Positions 57,174 to 57,529 of a DNA stretch of 57,529 bases are shown piece after piece. The translations under genes were made by a program, and so were the position numbers. The notes beneath the pieces were generated by a model. It made no database searches. It was not told where the DNA came from and saw only the letters and a program-made list of their open reading frames with translations. Position 1 is the first letter of the stretch. Every line of letters begins with the position of its first letter. The DNA is from Escherichia coli (GTDB lineage Bacteria; Pseudomonadota; Gammaproteobacteria; Enterobacterales; Enterobacteriaceae), in the NCBI RefSeq assembly GCF_003334355.1, contig NZ_QOWP01000025.1; one strand, 5' to 3'.

Positions 57174-57349
57174 GAACACACCTTTATCTTTTATCGCTGT
57201 TCAGTATGAGTGATTACCTGTCGATTCCTGAGCACACATAAGGGGTAACCATAAACATCAGCGATGCCATACGTATAACATCCCACATCACTATCAAGAA
57301 GATTATCTTTACCTCTGATGCTCGCTCAAAAACAGTTACGCTAAATACC

Positions 57350-57529
57350 GGTGATGCTGCCAACTTACTGATTTAGTGTATGATGATGTTTTTGAGGTGC
57401 TTGCGTGGCTTCCATTTCCATCAGATGTCCTTCCTGCTCCGCTACTGAAGGCGTGGTGCGTAACGGCAAAAGCACTGCCGGACATCAGCGCTATCTCTGC
57501 TCTCACTGCCGTAAAACATGGCAACTGCA
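57350..57529 (+). mobile_element. IS1: IS1-family element, left end with partial insA, continuing beyond the window
   Basis: GGTGATGCTGCCAACTTACTGATTTAGTGTATGATG matches the IS1 left inverted repeat; GTG at 57405 opens an InsA-like frame ([41 protein letters not shown]), roughly 90% identical to the IS1 I recall. Confidence 0.85.

Follow-up and report, generated by a model that had tools for sequence, protein, structure and literature searches.

What becomes of a gene that controls its own transcription when an insertion sequence comes to lie in front of it? PdeL acts as a c-di-GMP phosphodiesterase and at the same time as a transcription factor; its positive autoregulation gives rise to bimodal c-di-GMP states, keeps flagellar genes repressed and affords protection against phage N4. 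The window analysed here is the whole of the Escherichia coli draft contig QOWP01000025.1 (GCA_003334355.1; 57,529 bp), which ends in IS2 at one side and, next to pdeL, in IS1 at the other. We ask whether the IS1 junction is real, which IS1 it represents, where it lies with respect to the published regulatory elements of pdeL, and what it may do to the expression of the gene.

Genomic context of the contig

The contig is colinear with MG1655 from position 332,195 to about 391,300, at 99.2–99.9% identity. A Shigella origin was considered and ruled out, as all 43 of the 43 genes checked, lacZYA included, are intact and colinear with K-12; such intact, colinear genes are those of an ordinary E. 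coli and not of a decayed Shigella-like genome. Identity to K-12 is uneven along the contig. The 7.7 kb beside pdeL (49615–57349) is 99.87% identical and the rest about 99.2% or less, with the first 14.7 kb of the window at 98.3–98.8%, a pattern that suggests a recombination mosaic.

Several further differences from MG1655 were observed. Positions 1–77 match the left end of IS2 (MG1655 IS2A, 381260–381336, in reverse orientation) with 100% identity, and this IS2 interrupts a yaiT-like autotransporter gene (ORF 28–1155, minus strand) that shares only about 42% identity with the YaiT fragment of K-12. The tauA gene is apparently disrupted at about 5262–6129 on the minus strand: it is represented by ORFs 5262–5660 and 5713–6186, nucleotides 1–379 and 470–963 of MG1655 tauA align, some 90–95 nt between them are missing, and there are stops in the tblastn alignment. 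The yaiX gene is uninterrupted at 8766–8771, where the IS2A that splits MG1655 yaiX is absent. In the codA-cynR spacer (31749–32354) there are approximately three tandem units of about 200 bp, as against two in MG1655. Four matches to the REP-derived naRNA4 family (RF02564) lie at 14563–14638, 35057–35133, 39907–39978 and 49664–49733, and the REP copy number in the yahH region differs from that of K-12.

The junction between the pdeL upstream region and IS1

Homology to MG1655 stops exactly at position 57349 of the window, which corresponds to NC_000913.3 position 332195. From there on the sequence begins with GGTGATGCTGCCAACTTACTGAT, the IS1 left inverted repeat (IRL), followed by insA, and the element is cut by the contig end, such that only its 5' 180 nt are inside the window (Table 1). 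The inverted repeats of IS1 are 23 bp long; a complete element, of about 768 bp, further comprises the right inverted repeat, insB' and an A6C -1 frameshift site by which the InsAB' transposase is made, and its insertion duplicates 9 bp (occasionally 8 bp) of target DNA. Both the sequence itself and its IS1 matches bear out an earlier sequence-only reading of the window, which had recognized a left inverted repeat starting at 57350 and running off the end; the distance to pdeL, put there at about 170 bp, is 176 bp from the IS1 end to the pdeL ATG at 57173. As pdeL is on the minus strand, the IRL faces pdeL and insA reads away from it. The insA GTG start codon is about 55 nt from the end of the element, a layout that fits the insA of the IS1 family, which codes for a zinc-ribbon/HTH protein, and the Pfam domain Zn_ribbon_InsA (PF03811) is recorded for the insA fragment. 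The promoter-like site that overlaps the IRL was also found by consensus scan in a full-length IS1 copy; we take it to be the putative insA promoter.

Table 1. Features of the pdeL–IS1 region, in window coordinates or relative to the pdeL ATG.
Feature	Position	Strand or orientation	Basis or remark
Window coordinates
pdeL CDS, intact, 362 aa, S52N and N220K	56085..57173	-	translation, allele comparison
Native pdeL leader still joined to the gene, 176 bp	57174..57349	-	identical to MG1655
Native promoter-like site TTGAGC-16-GATAAT, candidate cryptic promoter, 21 bp from IS1 end	57302..57329	-	consensus scan
Predicted 9-bp IS1 target, CTAAATACC (GGTATTTAG in pdeL orientation)	57341..57349	.	predicted; far junction beyond window
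IS1 5' fragment, IS1F-like/possible mosaic isoform	57350..57529	+	identity to IS1F, IS1A and pL73-2 copy
IS1 IRL, 23 bp, GGTGATGCTGCCAACTTACTGAT	57350..57372	+	identical to IS1A IRL
Promoter-like site in IRL, CTGCCA-16-TATGAT, at insA promoter position	57357..57384	+	consensus scan
insA 5' part, GTG start, 41 codons, zinc-ribbon N-terminus CPSC...CSHC	57405..57529	+	translation
Relative to the pdeL ATG
Cra-independent PdeL box (CIB)	about -709..-637		EMSA primers, mapped on MG1655; box at about -700..-640
Cra box GCTGAATGGATTCAGT	-499..-484		mapped on MG1655
Cra-dependent PdeL box (CDB)	-483..-471		mapped on MG1655
RNA-polymerase-recruiting promoter fragment	-500..-320		oligo 4695 (Cra box/CDB) to reverse primer 4283
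Consensus promoter match TTGATC-16-TATAAT	-361..-334		inside RNA polymerase fragment; consensus scan
IS1 insertion in the window	-176	IRL end toward pdeL
IS1 of TBE6	-504..-496 (duplicated target)		at Cra box; exact mapping
IS1 of ST131 strain 4/4	about -440		divergent spacer, junctions not cleanly resolved; site shared by ST131 strains
IS1 of NT1F10	-304..-296 (duplicated target)		exact mapping
IS1 of EC4	about -204..-196 (duplicated target)		mapping
IS1 of C21-2	-165..-157 (duplicated target)	opposite orientation	exact mapping

A junction at the end of a draft contig could be an artefact, that is, a chimeric contig end produced by the collapse of repeats. The contig does stop in repeats at both ends, and a sister assembly, GCA_002190165.1, differs from it by 3 nt within IS1 positions 37–45. 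However, the identical junction, ...CAGCATCACC joined to GGTATTTAGCG..., is present in GCA_002190165.1 (contig LYBG01001192.1) and in four independent Logan assemblies (SRR25039421-4), which leaves an artefact with hardly any credibility. Because it recurs unchanged in independent assemblies, the junction is not an assembly chimera; it is real and inherited within a small lineage. The pdeL genes of all the junction-bearing assemblies match that of the window at every nucleotide.

The allele is rare. The exact junction is absent, in either orientation, from the 5,426 complete E. coli genomes searched, which gave matches at nearby sites only, so an IS1 at this position is not the common allele. 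MG1655, as the sequence-only reading stated, has no IS1 here, its betT-pdeL spacer being an uninterrupted 874 bp. Our literature search found no report of an IS1 upstream of pdeL (yahA); Sellner 2021 mentions IS1 in connection with flhDC, crl and dgcJ. The far junction was sought through contigs encoding K-12 BetT, which returned unrelated assemblies only, this BetT allele being present in 86,224 blocks of the collection.

Identity of the IS1 element

The 180-nt fragment matches IS1 in 4,963 of the 5,426 complete genomes (best match 99.4% identity, E = 8e-87), and a match of at least 99% is found in only 46 of 9,407 IS1-containing records. Over these 180 nt it is 96.1% identical to MG1655 IS1F and 92.2% identical to IS1A. 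The similarity is not evenly distributed: nucleotides 1–36 are identical to IS1A and nucleotides 51–150 are IS1F-like. As the first 50 nt are IS1A-like, the element is possibly a mosaic. The closest full copy is a mosaic IS1 on plasmid pL73-2, 99.4% identical to the fragment and, over 768 bp, 96.2% identical to IS1F and 93.2% to IS1A. At the protein level, the InsA N-terminus shares 40 of 41 residues with MG1655 InsA7 (insA7), the sole difference being H34P, and the IS1 copies of TBE6 and NT1F10 are identical to the window InsA across all 41 residues.

On the basis of at least 95% nucleotide identity and a near-identical InsA, both assessed over the first quarter of the element only, we assign it to the known IS1F-type isoform group. 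A novel isoform was ruled out by the IS1F-type InsA and by the near-identical mosaic copy on pL73-2. The suggestion, drawn in the sequence-only reading from departures from the canonical InsA, that this is a distinct IS1 isoform thus holds in part: the element is distinct from IS1A and IS1R, but it is not new, its InsA N-terminus being identical to IS1F-type InsA.

The IS1F of MG1655 (insA7/insB7, adjoining fecI) resembles the window element in its IRL, insA promoter and insA layout. The window element differs in being IS1A-like at inverted repeat position 4 and at nucleotides 37–45, save for G37A, which is unique to the window, and in occupying another genomic site. In the sister assembly GCA_002190165.1 (L004, 1–183) the IS1 differs from that of the window at positions 37, 40 and 45, being IS1F-like where the window is IS1A-like or unique. 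These may be either true differences between copies or the product of a contig end at which several IS1 copies are collapsed. The disagreement of three nucleotides between sister assemblies means that the contig-end bases inside the repeat are not fully reliable.

The insertion relative to the regulatory elements of pdeL

For a map of the pdeL regulatory region, the supplementary oligonucleotides of Reinders et al. (bioRxiv 10.1101/2021.10.01.462762) were located in the MG1655 sequence, with positions counted from the ATG (Table 1). In the same study, scrambling of the Cra or PdeL boxes strongly lowered pdeL transcription, and H-NS was found to silence the pdeL upstream region. From the fragment that recruits RNA polymerase, the name 'P1' of one of their strains, and a consensus match (TTGATC-16-TATAAT) that adjoins the bases changed in the strain so labelled, we infer the transcription start site of pdeL. 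With the start placed in this way, the IS1 is predicted to lie inside an untranslated leader of about 325 nt.

All the published cis elements fall between -709 and -320 and the IS1 is at -176, and for this reason the insertion is placed in the leader, clear of promoter and operators. The promoter fragment ends at least 144 bp, approximately 145–150 bp, upstream of the element, and the Cra box and both PdeL boxes are 300–530 bp upstream of it; the element thus lies between the promoter and the start codon for the start site that we infer. This does not agree with the proposal in the sequence-only reading that the element occupies the likely promoter and autoregulatory region and could disrupt promoter activity. 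Rather than interrupting the promoter, the element separates pdeL from it.

Within the 450 nt from 56900 to 57349 there is one mismatch to MG1655, in the S52N codon of pdeL. Since this sole mismatch falls in the coding sequence, the retained leader is identical to that of MG1655, and the candidate cryptic promoter in it (TTGAGC-16-GATAAT) is also present in MG1655. An Rfam search of the long pdeL leader returned no credible match to a known RNA element.

The pdeL allele of the lineage

The ORF list includes an in-frame GTG upstream of pdeL at 57179; the annotated PdeL of 362 aa starts at 57173. Compared with the common phylogroup-A allele, the window pdeL has two nucleotide differences, both of which are non-synonymous (S52N and N220K; n = 2). 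K220 is also present in an ST131 allele. S52N is common to every assembly that has the IS1 junction, and its nucleotide variant was not encountered among 3,762 complete-genome matches to the 63-nt segment that contains it. The S52N codon (57018–57020) is in the LuxR-type DNA-binding domain. From a reading of the LuxR/GerE-type helix-turn-helix pattern, S52 would be at the start of the recognition helix, 8 residues before K60; the K60A substitution abolishes DNA binding by PdeL (Reinders et al., bioRxiv 10.1101/2021.10.01.462762). S52N itself may reflect drift, relaxed constraint or adaptation. That pdeL is still intact in the lineage is compatible both with a recent or neutral event and with retained function.

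Recurrent insertions in the betT-pdeL spacer

The 874-bp betT-pdeL spacer of MG1655 (L001, 3498–4371) is 66% AT, and it is a frequent destination of IS1. About 215 of the 5,426 complete genomes (about 4%) have an IS1 in the spacer, at no fewer than 30 positions and in both orientations, a count that is inflated by clonal inheritance. The IS1 has the orientation of the window copy in 185 of these genomes, within about 765 bp beyond the window site, and the opposite orientation in 30; judging by the spans in our tables, same-orientation copies occupy at least 14 distinct positions and opposite-orientation copies about 20. Roughly a dozen positions are between the promoter and the ATG, and judging from their table spans, the sites of H174 and H175 may be as near as about -85 to -95.

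Five of these copies were mapped individually (Table 1), and four of the five have clean 9-bp target duplications. The copies of TBE6, NT1F10, EC4, C21-2 and ST131 strain 4/4 belong to the same family and occupy the same region as the window element, several of them also being in the leader, but their sites, isoforms and orientations differ from those of the window. In all five the pdeL gene is intact; it was translated in four spacer-IS1 genomes besides the window, three of them having it intact and the fourth, TBE6, differing by one residue.

IS1 is not the only occupant of the spacer. In another genome an IS5-family transposase gene lies between betT and pdeL (L021, 5094–6074), and in further loci an ORF of 1,327 aa that has no Pfam hit occupies this interval (L018–L020 and L024, from about 5107). 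This ORF probably corresponds to the AidA-like autotransporter gene that, according to Richter et al. 2014 (PMC4287979), replaces the promoter region of yahA (pdeL) in EAEC and EHEC. That replacement concerns the same spacer and is likewise predicted to reduce or rewire PdeL expression; it differs from the present case in that a gene rather than an IS is inserted, in other lineages and at another position.

A rough calculation puts about 0.38% of chromosomal IS1 copies in this spacer, which makes up 0.017% of the genome, an excess of approximately 20-fold over a uniform distribution; a similarly rough calculation that limits insertions to non-coding DNA reduces the excess to a few-fold. Target preference and tolerance adequately explain this recurrence, and selection is not demonstrated by it. 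We think it unlikely that the recurrent spacer insertions are a convergent adaptation, rather than an outcome of target preference, that disables or rewires the bistable c-di-GMP switch of PdeL, in this lineage together with S52N. If they were, bet-hedging between biofilm and motility and sensitivity to N4-like phages would be shifted.

Probable consequences for pdeL expression

As the whole explanation of the locus, we judge it on balance probable that the insertion of an IS1F-like element in the leader has a polar effect that uncouples pdeL from Cra/PdeL feedback. A single insertion would have taken place in the AT-rich betT-pdeL spacer, in the common ancestor of what is now a small lineage of E. 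coli. A full copy is expected to put about 777 bp (768 bp of IS1 and a 9-bp duplication) between pdeL and its promoter and operators, and transcription from the native promoter would reach pdeL only after running through the entire IS1 from its right end. IS1 insertions are polar in both orientations, as is known from the classical gal and lac IS1 mutations. A scan of a full IS1F-like copy predicted no intrinsic terminator, and thus polarity would need Rho. The predicted outcome is a lowered transcription of pdeL and a broken Cra/PdeL-dependent positive feedback, and with it the loss of bistability; what would be left is a basal, unregulated pdeL expression, fed by read-through or by a cryptic promoter within the 176 bp of leader that are kept. 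The gal and lac insertions have the same order of promoter, IS1 and gene, with transcripts that cross the whole element. The present case differs in that the element would be in the long untranslated leader of an autoregulated gene, where the predicted loss extends to the feedback loop.

The opposite effect has also to be weighed, namely an activation of pdeL by the IS1, or a constitutive expression of the gene, through outward transcription, relief from H-NS silencing or the cryptic TTGAGC-16-GATAAT site; c-di-GMP would then be low in the lineage, independently of Cra and of PdeL feedback. The IRL does carry an outward -35-like hexamer, TTGGCA, 8 nt from the end of the element; the scan of the full copy shows an antisense promoter-like site inside IS1, and the promoter-like site of the 176-bp flank is kept. 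IS1 in the flhDC upstream region reportedly activates the neighbouring gene, and IS1 is also said to give rise to hybrid promoters. According to Richter et al. 2014 (PMC4287979), IS1 ends contain -35 elements and full promoters directed outward; the authors cite IS1 activation at pga and flhDC. In the activating insertions at flhDC and at pgaA-ycdT in EAEC 55989 (PMC4287979), an IS1 end adjoins a gene of motility, biofilm formation or c-di-GMP metabolism, as it does here, but the window has no suitably spaced -10, and its IS1 lies on the downstream side of the native promoter instead of the upstream side. At spacings of 16, 17 and 18 bp, TTGGCA is partnered by GCGTAA, CGTAAC and GTAACT, which agree with TATAAT at only 1–3 of six positions and miss the key A2 and T6, and in the consensus scan the 180 nt of IS1 that are present gave no outward promoter. 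MG1655 has the flank site as well, and its pdeL expression is nevertheless dependent on the Cra and PdeL boxes farther upstream. Neither a hybrid promoter of the Prentki type nor a strong outward promoter is predicted at the IRL end. We therefore regard activation as unlikely.

It could also be that the insertion is effectively neutral, a passenger event in a spacer that is AT-rich, preferred by IS1 and tolerant of insertions. The number of genomes and positions at which IS1 is found in the spacer in either orientation is in keeping with such an event, as are the excess of IS1 over both a uniform genome and non-coding DNA, and the presence of IS5 and of an autotransporter gene in the spacers of other strains. 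Against neutrality, the IS1 parts pdeL from the cis elements that drive most of its transcription, the scrambling of which strongly lowers expression, and the two differences from the common phylogroup-A allele are both non-synonymous, small as that number is. A neutral insertion is in our opinion improbable, to about the same degree as activation. Lower still is the chance that the event was not a simple insertion and that an IS1-mediated deletion, inversion or recombination has left, beyond the element, DNA other than the rest of the spacer. As the window ends inside IS1, the far junction and the target duplication are out of view, and adjacent deletions and inversions mediated by IS1 are well documented (reviewed in PMC9330008), which counts for a rearrangement. 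However, four of the five other mapped spacer copies resolve as simple insertions flanked by clean 9-bp duplications (the ST131 copy not being cleanly resolved), and this makes simple insertion the norm in this spacer; in addition, over the rest of its 57 kb the contig keeps perfect colinearity with K-12, every one of the checked genes being intact. A rearrangement is for these reasons very unlikely.

Implications

The polar uncoupling of pdeL remains the explanation that we favour. The insertion is confined to one lineage, is of a known IS1 isoform and has struck a spacer that IS1 often hits, and in this respect the locus is an ordinary IS polymorphism. The many independent IS1 insertions suggest that the betT-pdeL locus is a frequent point of regulatory variation. 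A natural allele in which pdeL is detached from its Cra/PdeL-controlled promoter would test the role of the feedback loop outside K-12.
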